In this document: positions 1 through 64,000 of the stretch, piece after piece | Layout of the letters: each line of letters opens with the position of its first letter | Numbering within the stretch: the first letter of the stretch is position 1 | Assembly: GCA_040752335.1 (NCBI GenBank) | Contig: JBFMEV010000011.1 | Location: forward strand, 7,465 to 71,464 | DNA from: Chloroflexota bacterium | GTDB taxonomy: Bacteria; Chloroflexota; Limnocylindria; Limnocylindrales; CSP1-4 | DNA: 64,000 nucleotides | Direction of reading: 5' to 3' | The notes under the pieces: model-generated | The model's input: only the letters and a program-made list of their open reading frames with translations | Told to the model about the DNA's origin: nothing | Database searches by the model: none | Program-made: the position numbers and the translations under genes

Positions 1-2969
<2,969 letters not shown>

Positions 2970-3072: not shown

Positions 3073-7653
<4,581 letters not shown>

Positions 7654-7659
7654 CCGGAT

Positions 7660-7700
7660 GCCGGGCCCCGTTCGCCCGGCGCCCGGTCGCGACCCGCTCG
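7660..7700 (+). terminator. Candidate rpoC terminator/attenuator: hairpin GCCGGGC-N7-GCCCGGC followed by palindrome GGTCGCGACC and GCGTTT
   Basis: Inverted repeats read directly from the sequence, 7 nt after the rpoC stop. Confidence 0.3.
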
Positions 7701-7703
7701 CGT

Positions 7704-7733
7704 TTGACATGCGATCGGGCCGATTGCTACACT
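7704..7733 (+). promoter_or_regulatory. Candidate strong promoter of the str/S10/spc super-operon: TTGACA-N18-TACACT upstream of rpsL
   Basis: A perfect -35 hexamer at 7704-7709 and -10 TACACT at 7728-7733. It is followed by a ~190-nt GC-rich structured leader before the rpsL GTG at 7931. Confidence 0.45.
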
Positions 7734-7930
7734 CCGCGATCGTGGCTCCGGATGGAGGAGCCCCGTCAGACACGCCGTCGACGGGCCCGCCGGAACCCCC
7801 GAAGGATGGATGGAAAGGGTCCTCAGCGAGGGTCCCGGACCCCGCAAAGACGGACCCTGCGGTCGTCCGACCGCCCGCCCCGGCGTCACCGCGCCGACCG
7901 ACCGACGAAACCGAAAGGAGCAGCGTCTTC

Positions 7931-45368: not shown

Positions 45369-46072
45369 CGCCGACGCGCGACGGCCGGCCATGGCTCCTG
45401 GCGATCGACACGGGGACGTCGAAGATCGTGATCGCCGCCGGCTCGGTCGATGGCCGCGTCCTGGCCGCGATCGACGAGCCGGCCGGGCATCGTCACGGCG
45501 AGCGGCTCCTGGCCGGGGTCGAGCGGCTCGTCGGCGCAGCGCACCTCGACCTTCGGGCGCTTGCCGGGATCGTTGTGGGGATCGGGCCGGGCGCGTTCAC
45601 CGGCCTGCGGGTCGGGCTCGCGACGGCGAAGACGCTGGCCCACGCCAGGGGTCTCCCGATCGCCGGGATCGGGACCGGTGAGGCGCTGCTCCGGGCGGCC
45701 GAGACGGACCCCGGCGAACGGTCGACGCGCCGCAACGACCTCGTCCTGCTCCTGCCGGCGGGTCCCCACGACCGGCTCGAGGTTCGGCCGGGCCGCGATG
45801 CCCGCCTCCTTCCAGGCGGCATGGAACCCGACCTCGGCCCGAGCGACGTCCTCGTCGCGGTGGATCTCGCGGGCCGGGCGCCTCAGGCCGCCGTCGCCAG
45901 CGGCGAGCGGGCGCTCGCCGGCCTCGCCGCCGCACTCGTCGAGCTGGGTGCCCGGCGCCTGGCAGCCGGCTTCGGCGATGACCCGGCCCGGCTCGTGCCG
46001 GAATACGTCAGCCTGCCGCGCGGCGTCCGCGTGGCCGGCGGGGAGATCGAGTGGTCGCACGGCCCCCGGTGA
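45365..46072 (+). CDS. tsaB: tRNA t6A biosynthesis protein TsaB (YeaZ)
   Basis: ATGA overlap with tsaE. ...WLLAIDTGTSKIVIAAG... and ...GIGPGAFTGLRVGLATAKTLA... are YeaZ/Kae1-family motifs, without the metal-binding HxxH. Confidence 0.85.
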   Translation: MTPTRDGRPWLLAIDTGTSKIVIAAGSVDGRVLAAIDEPAGHRHGERLLAGVERLVGAAHLDLRALAGIVVGIGPGAFTGLRVGLATAKTLAHARGLPIAGIGTGEALLRAAETDPGERSTRRNDLVLLLPAGPHDRLEVRPGRDARLLPGGMEPDLGPSDVLVAVDLAGRAPQAAVASGERALAGLAAALVELGARRLAAGFGDDPARLVPEYVSLPRGVRVAGGEIEWSHGPR

Positions 46073-46089
46073 GGCTCCGCGTCGGCCCG

Positions 46090-46728
46090 ATGACGGTTGA
46101 TGACCTGTCCGAGGTCCACCGGATCGAGCGGGCGAGCTTCAGCGTGCCGTGGCCGGACGACGCCTATCGCAGCGAGCTCGTGGCCAACCGGCTGGCGTCG
46201 TATCTCGTCGTCCGGGTCGATGGCCAGGCCGGGATCATCGCCTACGGCGGGATCTGGCTGATGGTTGACGAGGCCCACATCACCACCTTCGCGGTCGATC
46301 CTGCCTGGCGCCGCCAGGGGGTGGGGGAGACGCTCCTCACGGCGCTCCTCGACCTGGCCGTGGCCCGTCACGCCCGGGAAGCGACGCTCGAGGTCCGGCT
46401 GTCCAACCTTCCGGCCCGGCGCCTCTATGAGAAGTACGGCTTCCGGCCGGTCGGCCTCAGGCCGCGCTACTACTCCGACAACGGCGAGGATGCCCTGATC
46501 ATGACCACCGAGCCGCTGACCGGCGGTTCGATGCGAGGGCGCCTCGCCGCTCTCCGCGCGGCGCTCGAGGCGGCGCCGCCGCCGTCGGGTCCCGCCGAGA
46601 TCGCCGGGCCGGGATCGCCCGGTGGGGCGATCGAGCCGCCCGGTGGCGCGATCGAGCCGCCCGGTGGCGCGATCGACCCGCCCGGCGCTCGGCCGCTGGC
46701 CCCGCGCGGCCCCGGTCCACGCTCGTGA
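46090..46728 (+). CDS. rimI: Ribosomal-protein-alanine N-acetyltransferase with a C-terminal (PGGAIEP)x3 repeat tail
   Basis: GNAT motifs ...AVDPAWRRQGVGETLL... and ...YEKYGF. A 21-bp in-frame tandem lies at 46618..46690. The start could instead be ATG 46051, which overlaps tsaB. Confidence 0.8.
   Translation: MTVDDLSEVHRIERASFSVPWPDDAYRSELVANRLASYLVVRVDGQAGIIAYGGIWLMVDEAHITTFAVDPAWRRQGVGETLLTALLDLAVARHAREATLEVRLSNLPARRLYEKYGFRPVGLRPRYYSDNGEDALIMTTEPLTGGSMRGRLAALRAALEAAPPPSGPAEIAGPGSPGGAIEPPGGAIEPPGGAIDPPGARPLAPRGPGPRS
46618..46690 (+). repeat. 21-bp tandem repeat x3.3 (CCCGGTGGCGCGATCGAGCCG) inside the rimI 3' end
   Basis: The copies are directly visible at 46618-46638, 46639-46659 and 46660-46680, with a partial fourth. 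They encode PGGAIEP repeats. Confidence 0.9.
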
Positions 46729-47789
46729 CCGGCCCGCTGATCCTGGCCATCGAGTCGTCGTGCGACGAGACCGGGATCGCCCTCGTCGAGGGCGGTCGCC
46801 GGATTCACGGCAACGTCGTCGCGAGCCAGGTCGCCCTCCATGCCCCGACCGGAGGGATCGTGCCCGAGGTCGCCGCCCGGGCCCATCTCCGCTGGATCCT
46901 GCCGGTCCTGGACGACGCCCTGGCCGATGCCGGCGCCACCATCGATGACGTCGATGCGGTCGCGGTGACCCACGGGCCCGGCCTGGCGGGGTCGTTGCTC
47001 GTCGGGATCAACACCGCCAAGACCCTGGCCTGGGTCCACGCCAAGCCGCTCGTCGGGGTGAACCACCTCGAGGGCCACGTCTATGCCGCCTGGCTGCTGG
47101 ACCCCGACCAGGCCGACGCCGCCGAGCCGGTGTTCCCGCTCGTGGCCCTGGTCGTGTCGGGTGGCCACACCTTCCTGGTCGAGATGCGCGACCACCTGGA
47201 GTACCGGCTCCTCGGCCAGACCGTCGACGATGCCGCCGGTGAGGCGTTCGACAAGGTCGGCCGTCTGCTCGGCCTGGGCTATCCGGGCGGCCCGGCAATC
47301 CAGCAGGCGGCCGAGGCCGCGCGCCACCATGACGCGGCGTTCCCGCGGGCCTGGCTCGGCGAGTCCTTCGACTTCAGCTTCTCAGGTCTCAAGACCGCCG
47401 CTCGCCGGATCGTCGAGGCCGAGCGGCTGCAGGCCGGGATCGCGGACGAGCCAGCGGTGCCCCTGCCCTCGCCGCGCGTCGCCGAGCTCGCCTGGGGCTT
47501 CCAGGATTCGGTCGCCGACGTTCTCGTCACCAAGACGATCCGGGCTGCCCGGGCCTGCAGGGCGCGATCGATCGTCCTCGGTGGCGGCGTCGCCGCCAAC
47601 GCCGCCCTGCGCGAGCGACTGGTGGCCGAGGCGGCCGACCTCGGGACCCCGCTGATCATCCCGAGAGCCGGGCTGTGCACCGACAACGGAGCGATGATCG
47701 GCGCCGCGGCAGCCCGGCGCTTCGAGGCCGGCGAGCGGGCCGGCCTTGACCTGGATGCTCGACCGTCGCTGCCCCTGGCGTCACGATGA
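46725..47789 (+). CDS. tsaD: tRNA N6-adenosine threonylcarbamoyltransferase TsaD (Kae1/Gcp)
   Basis: GTG overlaps the rimI stop. ...LILAIESSCDETGIALV... and metal-binding ...VNHLEGHV.... Confidence 0.9.
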   Translation: MTGPLILAIESSCDETGIALVEGGRRIHGNVVASQVALHAPTGGIVPEVAARAHLRWILPVLDDALADAGATIDDVDAVAVTHGPGLAGSLLVGINTAKTLAWVHAKPLVGVNHLEGHVYAAWLLDPDQADAAEPVFPLVALVVSGGHTFLVEMRDHLEYRLLGQTVDDAAGEAFDKVGRLLGLGYPGGPAIQQAAEAARHHDAAFPRAWLGESFDFSFSGLKTAARRIVEAERLQAGIADEPAVPLPSPRVAELAWGFQDSVADVLVTKTIRAARACRARSIVLGGGVAANAALRERLVAEAADLGTPLIIPRAGLCTDNGAMIGAAAARRFEAGERAGLDLDARPSLPLASR

Positions 47790-48720: not shown

Positions 48721-49770
48721 ATGGCTGATTCGGCCGGCCGCCTGGCGCCGGTCGTGCGCCTGGCCCCGGCGAAGCTCAACCTGACCCTCGCCGTCGTCGG
48801 CCGGCGCCCCGACGGCTTCCACGAGCTCCATTCGGTGATGGTCCCCCTGGCCCTCTCGGACCGCCTCAGCCTTGCCCGGGCGGTCAGCCCGCGTGACACG
48901 CTGCGCGTCGAGGGCCGGGACGCCGGCCCGGCGGCCGACAACCTCGTCCTGCGCGCGATCGGCCTGGCGCGGGCCGCGGTCGGGCGATCGGTCGATGCCT
49001 TCCCGCTCGCCGCGCGCCTCGAGAAACGGATCCCCGTGGCGGCCGGGCTGGCCGGTGGCAGCAGCGATGCCGCGGCCGCGATCGACGCCGCCCTCGAGGC
49101 CTGGGGACGGCTCGATCCCGCGGCCCCGCCGGACCCCGAGCTGGACGATCTCCGCCGCGCGGTGGCGGCCCGGGCCGGCTCGGACGTGCCGTTCTTCCTC
49201 GCCGGCGGGCCGGCGCTCGTCGAGGGGCGCGGCGAGCGGGTGACCCGGCTGGGCCCGATCCGGGGGGCGCCGCCCGGGGTCCTGCTCGTGACGCCCGCCG
49301 TCCCCTCGGCGACGCCCGACGTCTTCGCGGCCTTCGATGCCGGCGGTGCGGCGCTCCCGACGGACCCGCGATCCACCCGCCTGACGTCTGACCACCTGGC
49401 GGCCGAGCTGCGGTCCGGGCTGACCGCCGCGGCCCTGGTTGCGAGGGCCGGGGTCCTGGCCACCGCCAACGACCTCGGACCGGCAGCGGGTGCGGTCGTG
49501 GCCGGCCTCGGCGCCCTCCGCCGAGCTCTCGCACGGCGACTCGGCCGGCCGGTGGGCGTATCCGGCTCGGGGCCGACCCTGTGGGTCCTCTATCCTTCGG
49601 CATCCGAGGCGGAGATGGCCGCCGCCGAGGTCCGCGTCGGCCTCGACGATGGCTCGCTCGCGGCCCCCGGCGAGGCCCCGCCGGCGATCATTGCGACCTC
49701 GATCGCCGCGCCGGCGCCGGCCAGGCCGGCGACCACCATGACAGGCGACGGAACGGAGGAACGGACATGA
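48721..49770 (+). CDS. ispE: 4-diphosphocytidyl-2-C-methyl-D-erythritol kinase
   Basis: ATG 48721. ...APAKLNLTLAVVGRRPDGFHELHSVMVPL... and GHMP-kinase motif ...PVAAGLAGGSSDAAAA.... A/P-rich C-terminal tail. Confidence 0.85.
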   Translation: MADSAGRLAPVVRLAPAKLNLTLAVVGRRPDGFHELHSVMVPLALSDRLSLARAVSPRDTLRVEGRDAGPAADNLVLRAIGLARAAVGRSVDAFPLAARLEKRIPVAAGLAGGSSDAAAAIDAALEAWGRLDPAAPPDPELDDLRRAVAARAGSDVPFFLAGGPALVEGRGERVTRLGPIRGAPPGVLLVTPAVPSATPDVFAAFDAGGAALPTDPRSTRLTSDHLAAELRSGLTAAALVARAGVLATANDLGPAAGAVVAGLGALRRALARRLGRPVGVSGSGPTLWVLYPSASEAEMAAAEVRVGLDDGSLAAPGEAPPAIIATSIAAPAPARPATTMTGDGTEERT

Positions 49771-50150
49771 CCCGGCAGGCGGTCTCGACATCGGGCGCCC
49801 CGGCGGCCATCGGGCCGTACAGCCAGGGGATCGCCAGCGCCGATCTCGTGTTCTGCTCTGGCCAGCTCGGCCTGGACCCCACGACGGGCGAGCTGGCCCC
49901 GGGGGTCGAGGCCCAGGCCGAGCGTGCCCTCCGGAACCTCGCCGCGGTCCTCGATGCCGCGGGCTGCTCCTGGGGCGATGTCGTGAGGACGACGATCTAC
50001 CTGGCCGACATCGGCGACTTCGGTGCGGTCAACGGCATCTACGCCCGGTTCATGCCGGACCCACCGCCGGCCCGCTCGACGTTCGCCGTCGGGGCGCTGC
50101 CGAAGGGCGGCCTCGTCGAGATCGACGCCATCGCCTGCCGCAGGAGGTGA
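49767..50150 (+). CDS. ridA: RidA/YjgF-family reactive intermediate deaminase
   Basis: ATGA overlap with ispE. ...APAAIGPYSQGIASADLVFCSGQLGLDPTTGEL... and ...ARSTFAVGALPKGGLVEIDAIA. Confidence 0.85.
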   Translation: MTRQAVSTSGAPAAIGPYSQGIASADLVFCSGQLGLDPTTGELAPGVEAQAERALRNLAAVLDAAGCSWGDVVRTTIYLADIGDFGAVNGIYARFMPDPPPARSTFAVGALPKGGLVEIDAIACRRR

Positions 50151-50235
50151 CCGTCGCCTGCCGCAGGAGGTGACCGTCGCCTGCCGCAGGAGGTGACCTT
50201 CGCCCGCCGCAGAAGGTGACCTTCGCCCGCCACCC
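50131..50235 (+). repeat. 23-bp tandem repeat x~4.5 (TCGCCTGCCGCAGGAGGTGACCG), each copy containing GGAGGTGA; it begins inside the last codons of ridA
   Basis: Copies at 50131-53, 50154-76, 50177-99 and 50200-22 (degenerate), plus a partial copy at 50223-35. A related motif recurs at about 50412-50440 (CCGGAAGGTGACGGCTTTCGGCC). Confidence 0.9.
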
Positions 50236-50573
50236 CGGCGTGTCATTGGCTGCCAGTCACAGAAACGTGCGTCGGCTTGCCGCCCGGGCCGCTCAGGCCG
50301 CGGTTCGGCTCGCTTGCATGTCTGGTGGTCACTGAACCCTGCGCAAATGACCACGGCGCCTCTGGCCCGGCCTGGCAGGCCGGACTTCCCGGGCCGGCCG
50401 TCGCGTTTCGGCCTGACACACCGGAAGGTGACGGCTTTCGGCCCCGCCGCTGCACCAAACCGGCCCCCCGAGCCGAACCGCGGCATAGCGGGTCGGAATT
50501 CCGGCGTGTGGGTCCGGGCGCCGCTTCCCGGATCTCCACAAGAGAGGCTACGTCACTCAGCGCCGGCCCTCGA

Positions 50574-50603
50574 TTGACACTCCCGCGGCGCCGCCCATAC
50601 CCT
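50574..50603 (+). promoter_or_regulatory. Candidate glmU promoter: TTGACA-N18-TACCCT, implying a leaderless or near-leaderless transcript
   Basis: -35 TTGACA 50574-50579 and -10 TACCCT 50598-50603. The predicted TSS at about 50610 is 5 nt before ATG 50616. Confidence 0.35.
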
Positions 50604-50615
50604 TTCGTGACCCGC

Positions 50616-52043
50616 ATGACCCCATCACCACCCGCGCCGACAGGGCGAACCGCCGCCATCATCCTGGCTGCGGGCCTCGGGACGCGGATGAAGTCCCGCA
50701 CCCCCAAGGTCCTCCACCCCCTGTGCGGCCGACCGATGCTCGCCTATGTCCTCGACGCGTGGGCCGACGTGACCCCGGACCTCGCGGCCGCGCCTCCGGT
50801 TGTGGTCTACTCGCCGCCCGTGGCCGCGGTCCGCGACGCCGGCCTCGGCGAGGCCGTCCGGTTCGCCCTCCAGGACGAGCCACGGGGCACCGCCGACGCC
50901 GTTCGCGCCGGCCTGGTCGAGATCCCCGAGGACGCGGCCGAGGTCCTCGTCCTGTCCGGCGACGTGCCCCTCGTCCTCGGGCCGCAGCTCCTGGCCATCC
51001 TCGAGCAGCGCCGACTGGACGACGCCGCGATCGCCCTGGCCAGCGTGTATGCCGCCGAGCCGGCGAGCCTCGGGCGGGTCGTCCGGAGCGACTTCGGGAG
51101 CGTGGAGCGGATCGTCGAGGCCAGGGACGCGACGCCCGACGAGCTCGAGTCGAACGAGATCAACGCCGGCTGCTACGCCTTCGATGCGGAGTGGCTTCGC
51201 CGCCGCATCGGCTCGGTGGAGCCGTCGAACACAACGGGCGAGCTCTATCTCACCGAGCTCATCCGCCTCGCCCGCGACGACGGCCGGATCGTGAGCGCCG
51301 TCGGCTTCGACGACGATGGGACGTTCGACGGCATCAACGACCGAGCCCAGCTCGCCGAGGCCGAATGGGCCCTCCGCGTCCGGCGAAACGAGGCCCACAT
51401 GCGCTCCGGCGTGACGATGCGCGACCCCTCGACGGTCTATCTCGACTGGGACGTGGAGCTGGCGGCGGACGTCGTCCTCGAGCCCAACGTCATCCTCCGC
51501 GGGGCGACCTCGATCGCGACCGGGAGCTCGATCGGACCGGGCACCACGATCCTCGATTCGACGATCGGCCAGGACTGCCGCGTCTGGGCCAGCGTCGTGG
51601 AGCGGTCCGTCGTGGAGGATGGGGTCACGATCGGGCCGTTCAGCCATCTCCGGCCGGGCACCCACGTCGGCCCTGGCGCCGAGATCGGCAACTACGCCGA
51701 GCTCAAGAACACGACCCTGGGAGCCCGCGTCAAGCAGCACCACATGAGCTATCTCGGGGACGCCGTGCTCGGCGAGGGCACGAACGTGGGGGCGGGCACG
51801 ATCACGGCCAACTGGGACGGCCGGACGAAGCATCGGACGACGATCGGCCGGGAGGCCTTCCTGGGCGTCGACACGATGCTCGTCGCGCCGATCGATGTAG
51901 GCGATCGCGCCAAGACCGGCGCCGGCGCGGTCGTGACGAAGTCCGTGCCGGCCGGCAAGCTGGCGGTCGGCGTCCCGGCCAGGATCCGCGAGCCGCGGAT
52001 CCGGCCGCCGGACCCGGATGCCGATGAGCCCGGAGATCGATGA
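50616..52043 (+). CDS. glmU: Bifunctional GlmU (UDP-N-acetylglucosamine pyrophosphorylase / glucosamine-1-phosphate N-acetyltransferase)
   Basis: ATG 50616. ...AAIILAAGLGTRMKSRTPKVLHPLCGRPML.... C-terminal left-handed beta-helix hexapeptide repeats. 475 aa. Confidence 0.9.
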   Translation: MTPSPPAPTGRTAAIILAAGLGTRMKSRTPKVLHPLCGRPMLAYVLDAWADVTPDLAAAPPVVVYSPPVAAVRDAGLGEAVRFALQDEPRGTADAVRAGLVEIPEDAAEVLVLSGDVPLVLGPQLLAILEQRRLDDAAIALASVYAAEPASLGRVVRSDFGSVERIVEARDATPDELESNEINAGCYAFDAEWLRRRIGSVEPSNTTGELYLTELIRLARDDGRIVSAVGFDDDGTFDGINDRAQLAEAEWALRVRRNEAHMRSGVTMRDPSTVYLDWDVELAADVVLEPNVILRGATSIATGSSIGPGTTILDSTIGQDCRVWASVVERSVVEDGVTIGPFSHLRPGTHVGPGAEIGNYAELKNTTLGARVKQHHMSYLGDAVLGEGTNVGAGTITANWDGRTKHRTTIGREAFLGVDTMLVAPIDVGDRAKTGAGAVVTKSVPAGKLAVGVPARIREPRIRPPDPDADEPGDR

Positions 52044-54516: not shown

Positions 54517-55536
54517 GTGCCGGCACCCCGTCGCTATGCCACCGACGCGATCGTCCTGTCGCGCTTCGACTACGGCGAGGCCGACCGGATCCTGACCCTC
54601 ATCACGCCCGGCGCCGGCAAGATCAAGGCGATCGCCAAGGGCATCCGCCGGCCGAGCTCGCGGATCGGCGGCAGCCTGGAGCCGTTCGCCGAGCTGCGAC
54701 TCCTGCTGGCCCACGGGCGGACCTTCGACGTCGTGACCCAGGTCGAGGTCATCCATCCGTGGTTGCGGCTGCGGGACGACCTCATCTCGTTCGGCACGGC
54801 CGAGTACCTCGCCGAGATGGCCGACCGAACCCAGGAGGAGCGGCATGCCTCGGAGGTGGTCTACGTCCTCCTGAAGCGCGGCTACGAGATCCTCGATGCC
54901 GGGATGGCGCCCGGCCGCGTCGCTCGGTGGTTCGAGATGCACCTCGCCGATGAGCTCGGTATCCGCCCCGAGATCGATCGCTGCGTCGAGTGCGGGCGGC
55001 TGCTCGAGGCGGACGAGCAGTACCGCTGGGTTCCGCCCCTCGGCGGCGTCCTGTGCCAGCGCTGCCCGGGTCCGCCCCACGGCATCGCCGGCCTGTCGCT
55101 CGAGGCCCTCAAGCTCCTGAAGGCCTACCAGCGGATGGACGTCGAAGCCCTGGCCGCCCTCCGCGTCCGGCCGGAGGTGGAGGCCGAGGTCGAACGGGCC
55201 ATGCGCGAGTTCCTCGCCTATACCCTGGACCGTGCCCCGAGGTCACTCGCCTTCCTCGACGAGGTGCGCGCGGGCGCGCGCCCGCACGAGGGGCGCGCGG
55301 GCTCGCCCCCCGGCTCGGGGCCCGCCGCACCCCCCCCCGCCGGTGGCGCGCCGACCCCTGCTACCATCGCGTCGCCGATCCGTACCTCGACCGTCCATGC
55401 CACGGCCGGCCACCCCAGGAGCGCACGTGACCGACTCTCCCATCCGCGACCCGAACGAGGTCACGGCCGCCGTGCCCGACCTCGACACGATCGTCGGCCT
55501 CTCGAAGCGGCGCGGCTTCGTCTTCCCATCGAGTGA
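54517..55536 (+). CDS. recO: DNA repair protein RecO; its 3' end overlaps the glyQS start by ~110 nt
   Basis: GTG 54517 gives (M)PAPRRYATDAIVLSRFDYGEADRILTLITPGAGKIKAIAKGIRRPSS.... C4 zinc motif CVECGRLL...CQRCPG. No in-frame stop until 55536. Confidence 0.8.
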   Translation: MPAPRRYATDAIVLSRFDYGEADRILTLITPGAGKIKAIAKGIRRPSSRIGGSLEPFAELRLLLAHGRTFDVVTQVEVIHPWLRLRDDLISFGTAEYLAEMADRTQEERHASEVVYVLLKRGYEILDAGMAPGRVARWFEMHLADELGIRPEIDRCVECGRLLEADEQYRWVPPLGGVLCQRCPGPPHGIAGLSLEALKLLKAYQRMDVEALAALRVRPEVEAEVERAMREFLAYTLDRAPRSLAFLDEVRAGARPHEGRAGSPPGSGPAAPPPAGGAPTPATIASPIRTSTVHATAGHPRSARDRLSHPRPERGHGRRARPRHDRRPLEAARLRLPIE

Positions 55537-60846: not shown

Positions 60847-61656
60847 TCAGCCCGCGAAGAGGGCGGCGTCCTTGCCCTTCGGCCAATAGAGCTCCTTCTT
60901 GACGTGGAACTCCGGGAAACCGCGGTGCATCAGCTCGGTCTCGACGTTGATGATCATCTCGGGGTTGCCGCAGATGTAGACGACCGTCCGATCCGGTCGC
61001 AGCCCGAGGTCCTTGCACACGCCGGCGACCACCCGCTCAACCCGCCCGGTCCGACCGGCCCAGCCATCGTTGCGGGGGTCGTTGGGGCGCGAGATCGTGG
61101 GCACATAGGTCAGCGGGTAGCCCCTCTCCCGCTCGAGGCCCTCGAGGTAGTCGCGGTAGCCCAGCTCGTCCGTATACGAGCAGCCGTGGAGGACGACCGT
61201 CTTGCGCCGATCCTCGCGCAGCATCGTGTCCCGGATCATGGCGACGAACGGCGCGATCCCGGTTCCCGTCGAGACGTACAGGTGCGTCCGGTCGTCGTCC
61301 GGCTCGAGGAGGAACTTGCCCTTCGGCCCGATCATCCGCATCCGGTGGCCGATCGGCAGCCGCCACAGCGCCGTGGTGAACCGGATGACCGGCACGACCC
61401 GGACGTAGAACTCGTAGCCGTCAGTGCCGCTCAGCTGGGGCGGCGAGGCGACCGAGTACGGCCGCTGGAGGAGCTTGCCGTCGACGACGACGCCGGTCGT
61501 CATGTACTGGCCCGGCTCGAAGGGCGTCGGCTCGCCGTCGAAGCGAACCCAGAAGTAGGCGAGCTCGGGGGTCTGGTCCTCGCGCCGGACAAGCGTCGCG
61601 TTGTAGATCGGTGCGTCGGGCTCGATGACCCGCGTGTCCTCGGCGTGATGCGGCAT
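60847..61656 (-). CDS. fpr: Ferredoxin--NADP(+) reductase (FNR family); the start is ATG 61656 or 61713
   Basis: Minus strand. ...YNATLVRREDQTPELAYFWVRFDGEPTPFEPGQYMTTGV... with FAD-binding RPYSVAS and NAD(P)-binding HLYVSTGTGIAPF motifs. Confidence 0.8.
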   Translation of the reverse strand: MPHHAEDTRVIEPDAPIYNATLVRREDQTPELAYFWVRFDGEPTPFEPGQYMTTGVVVDGKLLQRPYSVASPPQLSGTDGYEFYVRVVPVIRFTTALWRLPIGHRMRMIGPKGKFLLEPDDDRTHLYVSTGTGIAPFVAMIRDTMLREDRRKTVVLHGCSYTDELGYRDYLEGLERERGYPLTYVPTISRPNDPRNDGWAGRTGRVERVVAGVCKDLGLRPDRTVVYICGNPEMIINVETELMHRGFPEFHVKKELYWPKGKDAALFAG

Positions 61657-61976
61657 CGGGCTGGTCGTCGCTCCCTGCGTGGGTTGCCCGCAGGCAGGGC
61701 TGCTCGCGGGCATGGCCGTTCGTCGGGATTGTAGTTGCGGGTCGTGGCCGCCGGGTTTCGACCCGCCGATCGGGAACCCAAACGGAACCCGCCCGCCTCC
61801 CAGCCGCAAACGTCGGGCGGCCGGGCCACCGACGGTACAATCCCGTGGACATCCGAACGATCTCCGCGGCCCACCGGCGAGCCCGCGCCGACCGGCGGGC
61901 CGCGCCGCCGCCCCGCCGCAGGAGCCCATCCACCCTGGCCACCGCCGCCCGGACCGACCGTGCCCCTCGCGCCCAT

Positions 61977-64000
61977 CGCGCTTCGAAGCGCTACATCTAC
62001 AGCTGGGGCGGGGGCGCGGCCGAGGGTGACGCCACGATGCGCGACCTCCTCGGCGGGAAGGGCGCCGGCCTGGCCGAGATGACGGCCGCCGGCCTCCCGG
62101 TCCCGCCCGGCTTCACGATCACGACCGAGGCCTGCAACGACTACTTCGCCGCCGGCGAGCAGCTCCCGGCCGGTCTCTGGGACGACGTCCTCGAGGCAGT
62201 GCGGGACGTGGAGTCGCAGACCGGCAAGGGCTTCGGCGACCCAGCCAACCCGCTCCTCGTCTCGGTCCGCTCGGGGGCCAGGTTCTCGATGCCCGGGATG
62301 ATGGACACGGTCCTCAACCTCGGCCTCAACGAGGCGACGCTCCAGGGCCTCGTCCGGCTCACGGGTAACGAGCGCTTCGGCTGGGACGCCTACCGGCGCT
62401 TCATCCAGATGTTCGGCCGGATCGTCATGGACGTCCCGGGCGAGCGATTCGACCAGGCGCTCGATGCGAAGAAGCACGCCCGGGGCGCGAAGCAGGACAC
62501 GGACCTCGACGCCGCCGACCTGCGCGATGTCGCGGCCGACTACCGGACGATCGTCCGCGAGGTCACCGGCCGCGACTTCCCCGAGGACCCCGACGAGCAG
62601 CTCGACCTCGCGATCAAGGCAGTCTTCGCCTCGTGGTTCGGGAAGCGCGCCCGGGACTATCGCGAGTACAACAAGATCGCCCACGATCTCGGCACGGCCG
62701 TCAACGTCGTGACGATGGTCTTCGGCAACATGGGTGAGGATTCCGGGACGGGCGTGGCCTTCACCCGCGACCCCAACACCGGCGACAAGGCCCTCTACGG
62801 CGAGTACCTCACGAACGCCCAGGGCGAGGACGTGGTGGCCGGCATCCGGACCCCCCAGCCGATCGCCCACATGCAGGAGGCGATGCCCGCGGTCTACGAC
62901 GAGTTCCAGCGGATCGCCGATCGCCTTGAGCACCACTATCGCGACGTCCAGGACCTCGAGTTCACGATCGAGCGCGGGCGTCTCTACATGCTCCAGACCC
63001 GCTCGGCCAAGCGGACGGCGGCGGCGGCGGTCCGCATCGCGACCGATATGGTCGCGGACGGGATCATCTCGAAGGAGGAGGCCATCGGCCGGATCGAGCC
63101 GGCGATGGTCGACCAGCTCCTCCGGGCGACGTTCGATCCCAAGGCCCTGAAGGGCGCGACGAAGATCGTCAACGGCCTCAACGCCTCGCCCGGCGCGGCC
63201 GTCGGCCGCGCTGTCTTCGACGCCGACGTGGCGGTCGAGTGGGTCAATCGCGGCGAGAAGGTCATCCTCGTCCGGATCGAGACCTCGCCCGACGACTTCC
63301 ACGGCATGGCCGTGGCCCAGGGGATCATCACCGCCCGCGGCGGGGCGACGTCCCACGCGGCCGTCGTCGCCCGCCAGATCGGCAAGCCCTGTGTCGCCGG
63401 CTCGTCCGACCTCATCGTCGACTACGCCACGAAGCAGGCCCACTGCAACGTGACCGGCACCGAGTTCAAGGAGGGCGACTGGGTCAGCCTCGACGGCTCG
63501 ACCGGGGCCCTCTACGCCGGCGCGCTGCCGACGGTCGAGGCCCGCTTCGAGGACCAGCCCGAGCTCCAGGCGATCCTCGGCTGGGCGGACGAGCTCCGCC
63601 GGATGCAGGTCTGGACCAACGCCGATAAGCCCGAGGAGGCCGCCCAGGCCCGTCGCTACGGGGCTCAAGGCATCGGCCTCTGCCGGACCGAGCACATGTT
63701 CCGCGAGGGCGAGCGCCTCGAGATCGTGCGCGGCGCGATCCTGGTGGCCAACCGGGCCACGCGGGCCAAGGCGAAGGTCGCGGCCGGGGGGTCGGTCGAT
63801 CCCGAGGAGCTCGAGGCGATCGCCACCTTCGATGCGGCGATGGCCAGGCTCGAGGCCCTCCAGCAGGGCGACTTCGAGGGCATCTTCGAGGCCATGGACG
63901 GCCTGCCGGTCGTCATCCGCCTCATCGATCCGCCGCTCCACGAGTTCCTGCCGAACCTCGAGGAGCAGCTTGTCAAGGTCACGAGGGCGGACGCGAACGG
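61977..64000 (+). CDS. ppdK: Pyruvate, phosphate dikinase, 3'-truncated by the window end; the 5' boundary is approximate
   Basis: Frame-0 translation from about 61986: KRYIYSWGGGAAEGDATMRDLLGGKGAGLAEMTAAGLPVPPGFTITTEAC.... It includes the phosphohistidine-domain GGATSHAAVVARQIG. No stop codon, so the ORF is absent from the supplied track. No canonical start lies immediately upstream of the conserved N-terminus. Confidence 0.85.

Follow-up and report, generated by a model that had tools for sequence, protein, structure and literature searches.

In Yersinia pestis, 10 of 88 variable-number tandem repeats (VNTRs) overlap the stop codon of an open reading frame (ORF), and little effect on the ORF is expected from them (PMC3689786). 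The present analysis concerns a comparable element in a Chloroflexota bacterium, a tandem array of 23-bp units that lies across the stop codon of ridA, upstream of glmU, in a stretch of 64,000 nucleotides of contig JBFMEV010000011.1 that is referred to here, at its whole length, as the window. The likeness to the Yersinia loci resides in head-to-tail units of tens of base pairs whose length is not a multiple of 3, in a unit that holds the stop of the upstream gene, by which the protein is unaffected by copy number and the other copies are left intergenic, and in a presumed origin by slippage without designed function. The difference is that the present array is known from one uncultured Chloroflexota metagenome-assembled genome (MAG), at a single copy number. 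High-identity head-to-tail copies, a stop inside the repeat and restriction to one lineage, the marks of a stop-codon minisatellite, were all observed in it.

Other described systems resemble the locus in part. The mycobacterial interspersed repetitive unit (MIRU) VNTR loci of Mycobacterium tuberculosis, ascribed to Supply et al., are reportedly tandem repeats of tens of base pairs that lie between co-oriented genes and touch their stop codons, and the MIRUs are said to form one family over about 40 loci, some with small overlapping ORFs. The locus studied here shares with them a high-GC genome and spacer repeats oriented with the genes, and the 72-nt units of a second repeat family in the same spacer fall within the MIRU size range; however, both repeat types occur at a single locus and come without a start codon or coupling ORF. 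The 72-nt units also recall repetitive extragenic palindromic (REP) sequences and bacterial interspersed mosaic elements, being imperfect, hairpin-prone palindromes clustered just after a stop between co-oriented genes, but whereas REPs lie scattered in hundreds of copies, often with alternating orientation, the 72-nt core was found nowhere else in about 700 kb (the window and the fetched loci) and its copies are all direct, at a fixed 72-nt period. Plasmid and origin iterons are likewise direct units of about 20 bp in tandem, as in the 23-bp array; an earlier interpretation of the window made from its letters alone (the sequence-only reading) had proposed such an iteron-like array, yet neither a rep gene nor an origin lies nearby, nothing points to a plasmid, and the unit is coding sequence from the end of ridA that is lacking in relatives. 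Clustered regularly interspaced short palindromic repeat (CRISPR) arrays are approached by the 72-nt family only, with its period of about 72 nt and its partly palindromic conserved half followed by a variable half, and they are set apart by its highly diverged repeats, its vertically inherited "spacers", the lack of cas genes and the lack of a CRISPR-DR match.

The 23-bp array and its origin

Tandem Repeats Finder (TRF) reported a period-23 array at 50131-50231 with 4.4 copies, 96% matches and a score of 167, the highest of its 101 rows in the window. The consensus 23-mer TCGCCTGCCGCAGGAGGTGACCG was matched at 50131, 50154, 50177 and 50200 with 0, 0, 1 and 3 mismatches, four matches being observed against 0 in 100 shuffles, and within the window it is restricted to 50131-50222. 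The array is laid out as follows.

50131-50233, + strand: the 23-bp tandem array (TRF, pattern search, sequence reading, comparison of 14 RidA C-termini)
50131-50153, + strand: copy 1, matching the consensus exactly
50154-50176, + strand: copy 2, identical to copy 1
50177-50199, + strand: copy 3, with 1 mismatch
50200-50222, + strand: copy 4, with 3 mismatches and the most ancestral-like
50223-50233, + strand: partial copy 5 of 11 nt, TCGCCCGCCAC (sequence reading)

The sequence-only reading had described a tandem repeat at the ridA stop whose first copy encodes the end of the gene, and both statements were borne out: copy 1 comprises the last two bases of an Ile codon, the last 5 full ridA codons and the stop, TGA at 50148-50150. 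Its further statement that every copy carries GGAGG and a TGA is true of copies 1-3 only, as GAAGG stands in copy 4 and both motifs are missing from the partial copy. The unit length of 23 is indeed not a multiple of 3, and the TGAs of copies 1-4 fall in frames 0, +2, +1 and 0, so that all three frames are closed within 70 nt. Because the unit contains the stop codon, copy 1 alone is translated and RidA stays at 127 aa at any copy number. A degenerate copy proposed at about 50412-50440 could not be sustained, the best alignment (50424-50448) being marginal, with 40 of 1000 shuffles scoring equally. On reading the sequence, each 23-mer holds two short palindromes, CCTGC-C-GCAGG and GGTGACC, and the array by itself has a minimum free energy (MFE) z-score of -1.0.

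Comparison with relatives bears on how the array came about. It is absent from all fetched ridA-glmU loci (L001-L052 and L054-L085; L053, an unrelated contig, was left out of the comparison). The 14 closest RidA proteins end in IARRRS (13) or IARRRG (1), and the RidA of the window ends in IACRRR. The DNA of the relatives' ridA terminus reads ATCGCCCGCCGCCGCAGCTGA, with the ancestral CCC in ATCGCCCGCCGC; copy 4, TCGCCCGCCGCAGAAGGTGA, keeps this CCC and stands three substitutions from the relatives' terminus. Copies 1-3 carry two further changes, namely CCC to CCT, the cause of an Arg-to-Cys replacement in the copy that is translated, and the synonymous AGA to AGG, which creates GGAGG. Since the latter is an Arg-codon change of this lineage only, the GGAGG, similar as it is to a Shine-Dalgarno (SD) sequence, can be regarded as a by-product; no start codon follows it at a usable distance, glmU beginning 380 nt further on, and the ribosome stand-by or translation-arrest element envisaged by the sequence-only reading is thereby disfavoured. 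Finally, TCGCCCGCC begins both copies 4 and 5, as a 9-nt direct repeat with its arms 23 nt apart. Together with the 5' to 3' mismatch gradient (0, 0, 1, 3), this flanking direct repeat fits a microhomology-driven and recent expansion at the coding end.

We therefore consider the array, with a probability of roughly 70%, to be a young, lineage-specific minisatellite produced by neutral, microhomology-mediated tandem duplication of the ridA 3' end, in a dispensable spacer upstream of the glmU promoter. The ancestral ridA terminus would have read ...ATC GCC CGC CGC AGA AGG TGA CCT and would survive as copy 4, with a second TCGCCCGCC standing 23 nt after it in what is now the partial copy 5. This 9-nt direct repeat would have served as the misalignment substrate for slipped-strand duplication, and successive rounds would have added copies on the 5' side, the two newest of which are still identical. 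The terminal residues would have passed from IARRRS, as in the relatives, through IARRRR, as in copy 4, to the present IACRRR, and the rest of the gap would represent the decaying remnant of an older 72-nt array along with lineage-specific filler. The slippage mechanism, the order of events and their neutrality are what we infer from the pattern of copies. Among the four possibilities offered by the sequence-only reading (a small RNA (sRNA), a stand-by or arrest element, an iteron-like array and a slippage-prone repeat), only the slippage-prone repeat is supported; it fits all of the evidence, from the absence of the array in every relative and the presence of other arrays in the same spacer to the gradient and the 9-nt repeat.

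The ridA-glmU spacer and its glmU promoter-like block

With the ATG of glmU at 50616, the gap between ridA and glmU measures 465 nt. The sequence-only reading had placed the end of the gap at 50570 (50236-50570), as if glmU started at about 50571, and is corrected in this respect. The genes and the parts of the spacer beyond the array are these.

49767-50150, + strand: ridA, RidA/YjgF family, 127 aa (ORF and sequence; homologues with PF01042, 82-94% identity)
50224-50367, + strand: two recognisable 72-nt units, decayed (fuzzy core search, nhmmer, unit alignment and consensus)
50368-50570, + strand: lineage-specific remainder of the spacer (repeat finding, local alignment; blastn against relatives gave no homologue)
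50573-50615, + strand: conserved glmU promoter-like block (11-locus alignment, blastn)
50616-52043, + strand: glmU, bifunctional N-acetylglucosamine 1-phosphate (GlcNAc-1-P) uridyltransferase/acetyltransferase, 475 aa (ORF; homologues with PF00483, PF12804 and PF00132)

A blastn search of 50101-50615 against every fetched locus gave matches in two places only, the 3' end of ridA and the 45-50 nt or so that precede glmU. The latter block is composed of ATTGACAC, 13 variable bases, CCCATACNCT, 12-14 nt and the ATG; ATTGACAC and CCC.TAC.CT are invariant and CCCATACNCT is nearly so in 11 loci with 58-93% GlmU identity (L001-L004, L045, L047, L048, L054-L056 and L059). In the window, a -35 element TTGACA at 50574-50579 is followed by an 18-nt spacer, by TACCCT at 50598-50603 within CCCATACCCT (50594-50603) and by 12 nt to the ATG, and the block is without a Shine-Dalgarno sequence. 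A strict sigma-70 scan made no call here, the -10 fitting TATAAT at 3 of 6 positions; TACCCT is taken by us to be a putative -10 of the TANNNT type, as in high-GC bacteria. The conservation points to a compact glmU promoter at 50573-50615 and suggests that Limnocylindria-like Chloroflexota make a glmU mRNA with hardly any leader. If this is right, the 420 nt from the ridA stop to 50573 would lie upstream of the promoter and would not be the 5' leader of glmU, because the conserved promoter-like block lies within 45 nt of the ATG; RNAalifold, moreover, found no consensus structure.

The stretch between the ridA stop and this -35 element was found to vary widely among the loci, both in length and in content.

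About 22-27 nt: L002, L003 and L048 (outgroups, 78-80% GlmU identity), and L064
54 nt: L056
73-74 nt: L055 and L085
91 nt: L001
172 nt: L062
270-360 nt: L054, L063, L065/68 and L070-73
423 nt: the window
Insert of about 900 nt with an uncharacterised ORF, at about 3080-3955: L047
Whole Wzy_C (O-antigen ligase-like) gene at 1002-2711, minus strand, divergent from glmU: L059/L060

A second set of spacer lengths, with the same 22-27 nt for the shortest class, gives 93-112 nt for L055, L056 and L085, some of them congeners, and 330-400 nt for L054, L063, L065 and L070. The RidA proteins of L064 and L065 are identical, yet the spacer is short in the former and long in the latter. Short tandem arrays of their own, with unrelated unit sequences, occur in the spacers of three loci: 3.0 copies of 23 bp in L001 (3890-3958, abutting the -35), 3.7 copies of 17 bp in L065 (1913-1980) and 2.1 copies of 18 bp in L070 (1893-1929). 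Where long spacers can be aligned, they diverge about as third codon positions do (L065 and L070, 83-85% against 85-94%; L054 and L063, 67% against 73%), which argues for little constraint overall. Since lengths, arrays and inserts vary in this manner, the junction can be described as a recurrent site of tandem duplication and insertion whose extra DNA is needless for both genes; as far as the comparison of loci tells, the spacer is dispensable and a clade-wide hot spot for repeats and insertions. A derivation of the gap from the Wzy_C gene of L059 or from the insert of L047 was rejected, as the similarity was not above that of shuffles and the tblastx output was compositional noise.

The gap is non-coding. 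Its GC content at codon positions 1, 2 and 3 is flat at about 0.70 in every frame, against a third-position GC (GC3) of 0.88-0.95 and a second-position GC of 0.51-0.64 in ridA, glmU and ispE, and its ORFs have no Pfam match, in agreement with the sequence-only reading, which had seen no convincing ORF. The same reading had called gaps of this size rare in the window, and the longest run without codon-position periodicity is in fact 50094-50702, which measures 609 nt with smoothing included. The second longest, 378 nt at 61649-62026, contains short GC-rich tandem repeats at 61864-61919, and it is followed in length by 7633-7911 (279 nt). Overlapping GC-rich, palindromic tandem repeats of 26-27 bp (GGGGCGCGC...) were also noticed at 55259-55358, with low coding signal at 55263-55449. 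The lower local GC reported for the gap is real and slight, 0.68-0.73 against 0.71-0.83 upstream.

As for the surroundings, ridA closes a tsaD-rsmA-ispE-ridA run, and the neighbours of the array are tsaD, rsmA, ispE, ridA, glmU, a CNNM/CorC gene and a polyprenyl synthase gene; the order tsaD-rsmA-ispE-ridA-glmU-CNNM/CorC is kept in relatives. The GlmU of the window is 100% identical to MEW5990930.1, which is encoded by a MAG, and its relatives are Chloroflexota MAGs labelled Candidatus Limnocylindrales or Chloroflexia. The other nearest genomes have 89-93% GlmU identity, the closest RidA is at 94%, and exact-sequence look-ups for RidA and GlmU returned no match. Just 5' of tsaD, ARAGORN called a 91-nt "tRNA-Gly" at 46520-46610, inside the C-terminal tail of a RimI-like acetyltransferase ORF (46051-46728); an in-frame 21-bp repeat of 3.3 copies (PGGAIEP three times) adjoins it at 46616-46685, the tail has little codon-position signal at 46540-46741, and the call is probably a false positive.

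The 72-nt repeat family and other accounts of the spacer

The older repeat family was recognised by comparing L054 with L063, and its consensus is GG..ttC.TGtCTGGCAGTCA.CGAa.CctGCgtCgCG. In the window two cores, GGCTGCCAGTCACAGAAAC at 50248 and GTCTGGTGGTCACTGAACC at 50320, stand exactly 72 nt apart, and nhmmer matched 50236-50291 and 50300-50362. Over the roughly 700 kb of the window and the fetched loci, its profiles of the unit and of the core had matches in the ridA-glmU gaps of one genus-level clade only. The cores of the other carriers lie at the following positions.

L063: cores at 127, 199, 271 and 343; family span 103-390
L054: cores at 607, 679 and (751); family span 583-798
L065/66/68: cores at 2009, 2081 and 2153 (L065 coordinates); span 1983-2198
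L070-74: cores at 1989, 2061 and 2133 (L070 coordinates); span 1963-2178

The clade is star-like, with GlmU identities of 89-94%, and its carriers of the family are not one another's nearest kin. Either the 72-nt array would therefore have been present in the ancestor of the genus and been lost several times, or it would move between lineages.

It is in this older family that several of the observations weighing against a neutral minisatellite are found. The exact 72-nt period is held in five lineages; identity between paralogous units is 53% in the core of about 36 nt and 37% elsewhere, where chance gives 29%; and the units, owing mainly to four of them, show some extended dyad symmetry (pooled z 2.85). 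These three features hint at some constraint on the older repeat. The whole gap, moreover, folds slightly better than shuffles, with MFE z of -2.3 on the + strand and -1.9 on the - strand. The 23-bp array itself was compared with genomes at no more than 93% GlmU identity, and since VNTRs are defined by copy-number polymorphism, it would be a putative VNTR; the search for further 23-mer copies covered 64 kb of this genome.

That the period is exact, that the dyad core is kept better than its surroundings and that the family is confined to one locus would fit a functional role for the 72-nt units. They would then form a module placed after the ridA stop and before the glmU promoter, shared by five or more congeneric Limnocylindria lineages (the window among them), and the 23-bp array would be a newer layer produced at the same repeat-generating locus. 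Possible roles are those of a terminator or insulator with several hairpins, of an element that stabilises the RNA of the ridA operon, or of a phased binding array for a regulator of cell-wall precursors. We hold this to be unlikely. A hairpin centred on CTGG(C/G)AG is present in 12 of 15 units with a mean z of only -0.7, and RNAalifold gave an empty or near-zero consensus on the units. Between the last core and the -35 lie 52, 55, 81, 91 or 254 nt, by which fixed phasing of the cores with the -35 is ruled out and a phased activator array is argued against. A sigma-54 promoter in the CTGGCAG core was dismissed by eye for its wrong spacing. A dre site of the DasR/NagR-like kind was also set aside, as its half-sites, similar as they are, would stand 3 nt apart.

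Rather unlikely, too, is the proposal that the 23-mers, the 72-nt CTGG(C/G)AG units or both are binding sites of a regulator, which would modulate the glmU promoter or act as a decoy. The two short palindromes of each 23-mer, the dyad-symmetric cores that are better kept than the rest of the unit, the placement of the repeats upstream of the promoter-like block and a 72-bp period that amounts to about 7 helical turns by our own arithmetic are all in keeping with it. Yet the 23-mer is the coding terminus of ridA and is absent from all relatives, the last core stands at a varying 52 to 254 nt from the -35, congeners and outgroups manage without any repeats, the core motif recurs nowhere else in the 700 kb or so that were covered, and overall divergence is roughly neutral.

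A structured non-coding RNA, be it an sRNA or a 3' untranslated element of the ridA operon with REP-like terminator or stabiliser hairpins, is distinctly improbable. Hairpins named by the sequence-only reading do exist, as in GTGGTCA at 50325-50331, which pairs with TGACCAC at 50348-50354, and core-like palindromes are found at 50368-50382 (CGGCCTG-G-CAGGCCG, CGGCCTGGCAGGCCG) and at 50409-50424 (CGGCCTGACACACCGG). An inverted repeat of 50289-50312 with 50469-50491 matches at 23 of 24 positions (local alignment z=6.3) and includes a perfect 16-bp stem, 50297-50312 with 50469-50484, which could close one domain; beyond it, no other large inverted or direct duplication inside the gap was significant. 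To these may be added the folding energy of the gap, the core-centred hairpin of the 72-nt units and, by eye, arm pairs that look compensatory (GGATTTCG/CGAATCC and GGAATCCG/CGATTCC). Comparably strong inverted repeats, however, occur inside coding DNA of the window, for example at 49002/49220, and for this reason the stem is not taken as evidence of an RNA. For the arms and the whole of 50368-50570, blastn against the relatives' loci turned up no counterpart, congeners lack the element, the promoter/terminator scan made no call, and the units yield neither a consensus structure nor a strong mean hairpin score. The claim of a structured gap is weak: the hairpins exist, and no structure is conserved in relatives. 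Rfam, which was to be searched for a known RNA family, had no match in the window at gathering score and none in the gaps of L054, L063, L065 and L070; even permissively (E<=10) no family emerged, the best score in 50000-50750 being 18 bits against a gathering score of 71 bits. No remnants of transfer RNA (tRNA) or transfer-messenger RNA were found in the gaps. With the region also missing in close relatives, the sRNA interpretation is not upheld.

It is very improbable that the array, or its copy number, is an assembly artefact of a short-read MAG. The source is indeed a MAG, and the identity of copies 1 and 2 leaves the copy number unanchored by unique bases; against this, the whole array of about 101 bp is below typical read length, copies 3-5 can be told apart by their substitutions, and the array is flanked by unique sequence. 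Gross mis-assembly is unlikely.

Hardly credible is the view of the 72-nt part as a fossil orphan CRISPR-like array, with the 23-bp array unrelated to it, in which a partly palindromic repeat of about 36 nt ending in GAAAC alternates with a spacer of about 36 nt. The period, the alternation of conserved and variable halves, and a core with hairpin potential and a ...CAACGAAAC end, which resembles the 3' handles of CRISPR repeats, would suit such a view, but the repeats are only about 53% identical, the "spacers" are orthologous between species (L065 and L070) and hence show no turnover, conservation continues past GAAAC into the supposed spacer (CTGCGTCGCG), no CRISPR-DR family of Rfam was matched and no cas genes are among the called neighbours.

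Scarcely to be believed either is a coding role, in which the gap would encode a small protein of 24-residue repeats (C-L-A-V-N-E-[ST]-C-V-A) or the repeats would permit a frameshift or read-through extension of RidA. The 72 nt do equal 24 codons, no stop interrupts the motif frame in the gaps of L054, L063 and the window, and some differences between units fall, by eye, at third positions; the flat GC of the three positions is nevertheless unlike the GC3 of real genes, neither L063 nor the window offers a usable start codon or SD sequence, the frame of the motif relative to ridA differs in each locus, gene callers gave no standalone gene in L054, L063 and L065-L074, and no Pfam family was matched. 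The one gap-spanning ORF, in L064, continues to the end of its contig and resembles glmU with its start extended, and read-through products are blocked by the TGAs in all three frames within 70 nt.

A mobile element or miniature inverted-repeat transposable element was rejected, since the 24-nt inverted-repeat flanks have no target-site duplication by eye, no second copy of the gap occurs in the window or the fetched loci, and the gap has no match in plasmid and phage collections. A metagenome scan for the inverted-repeat pair returned only the unrelated contig L053 (FTJA01004143.1), whose end at 1920-2164 is a perfect snap-back palindrome of about 200 nt that matched the pattern by construction only; this end is probably an assembly or amplification artefact.

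Significance of the locus

Having weighed these accounts, we return to the minisatellite at the ridA stop. The array is most likely a new instance of an ordinary bacterial minisatellite and not a new RNA or regulatory device, and the whole gap upstream of the glmU promoter is probably neutral. Its effect would at most be to hold the ridA stop farther from the glmU promoter than in the outgroups (423 nt against about 22-27 nt). A function for the 72-nt family, if one were shown, would make it a repeat module tied to one locus, for which no counterpart is known to have been described in Chloroflexota.

Two side results may be of modest use, namely the ridA-glmU junction as a recurrent hot spot of tandem duplication and gene insertion in this clade, and, for Limnocylindria, a glmU promoter motif that is strongly conserved and would leave the mRNA almost without a leader. 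The locus also counsels caution, for SD-like motifs and hairpins in high-GC spacers can arise from coding sequence and slippage. As an ordinary intergenic minisatellite the array is of little import, and it could possibly be used to tell strains apart within an uncultured Chloroflexota lineage of soil or sediment.

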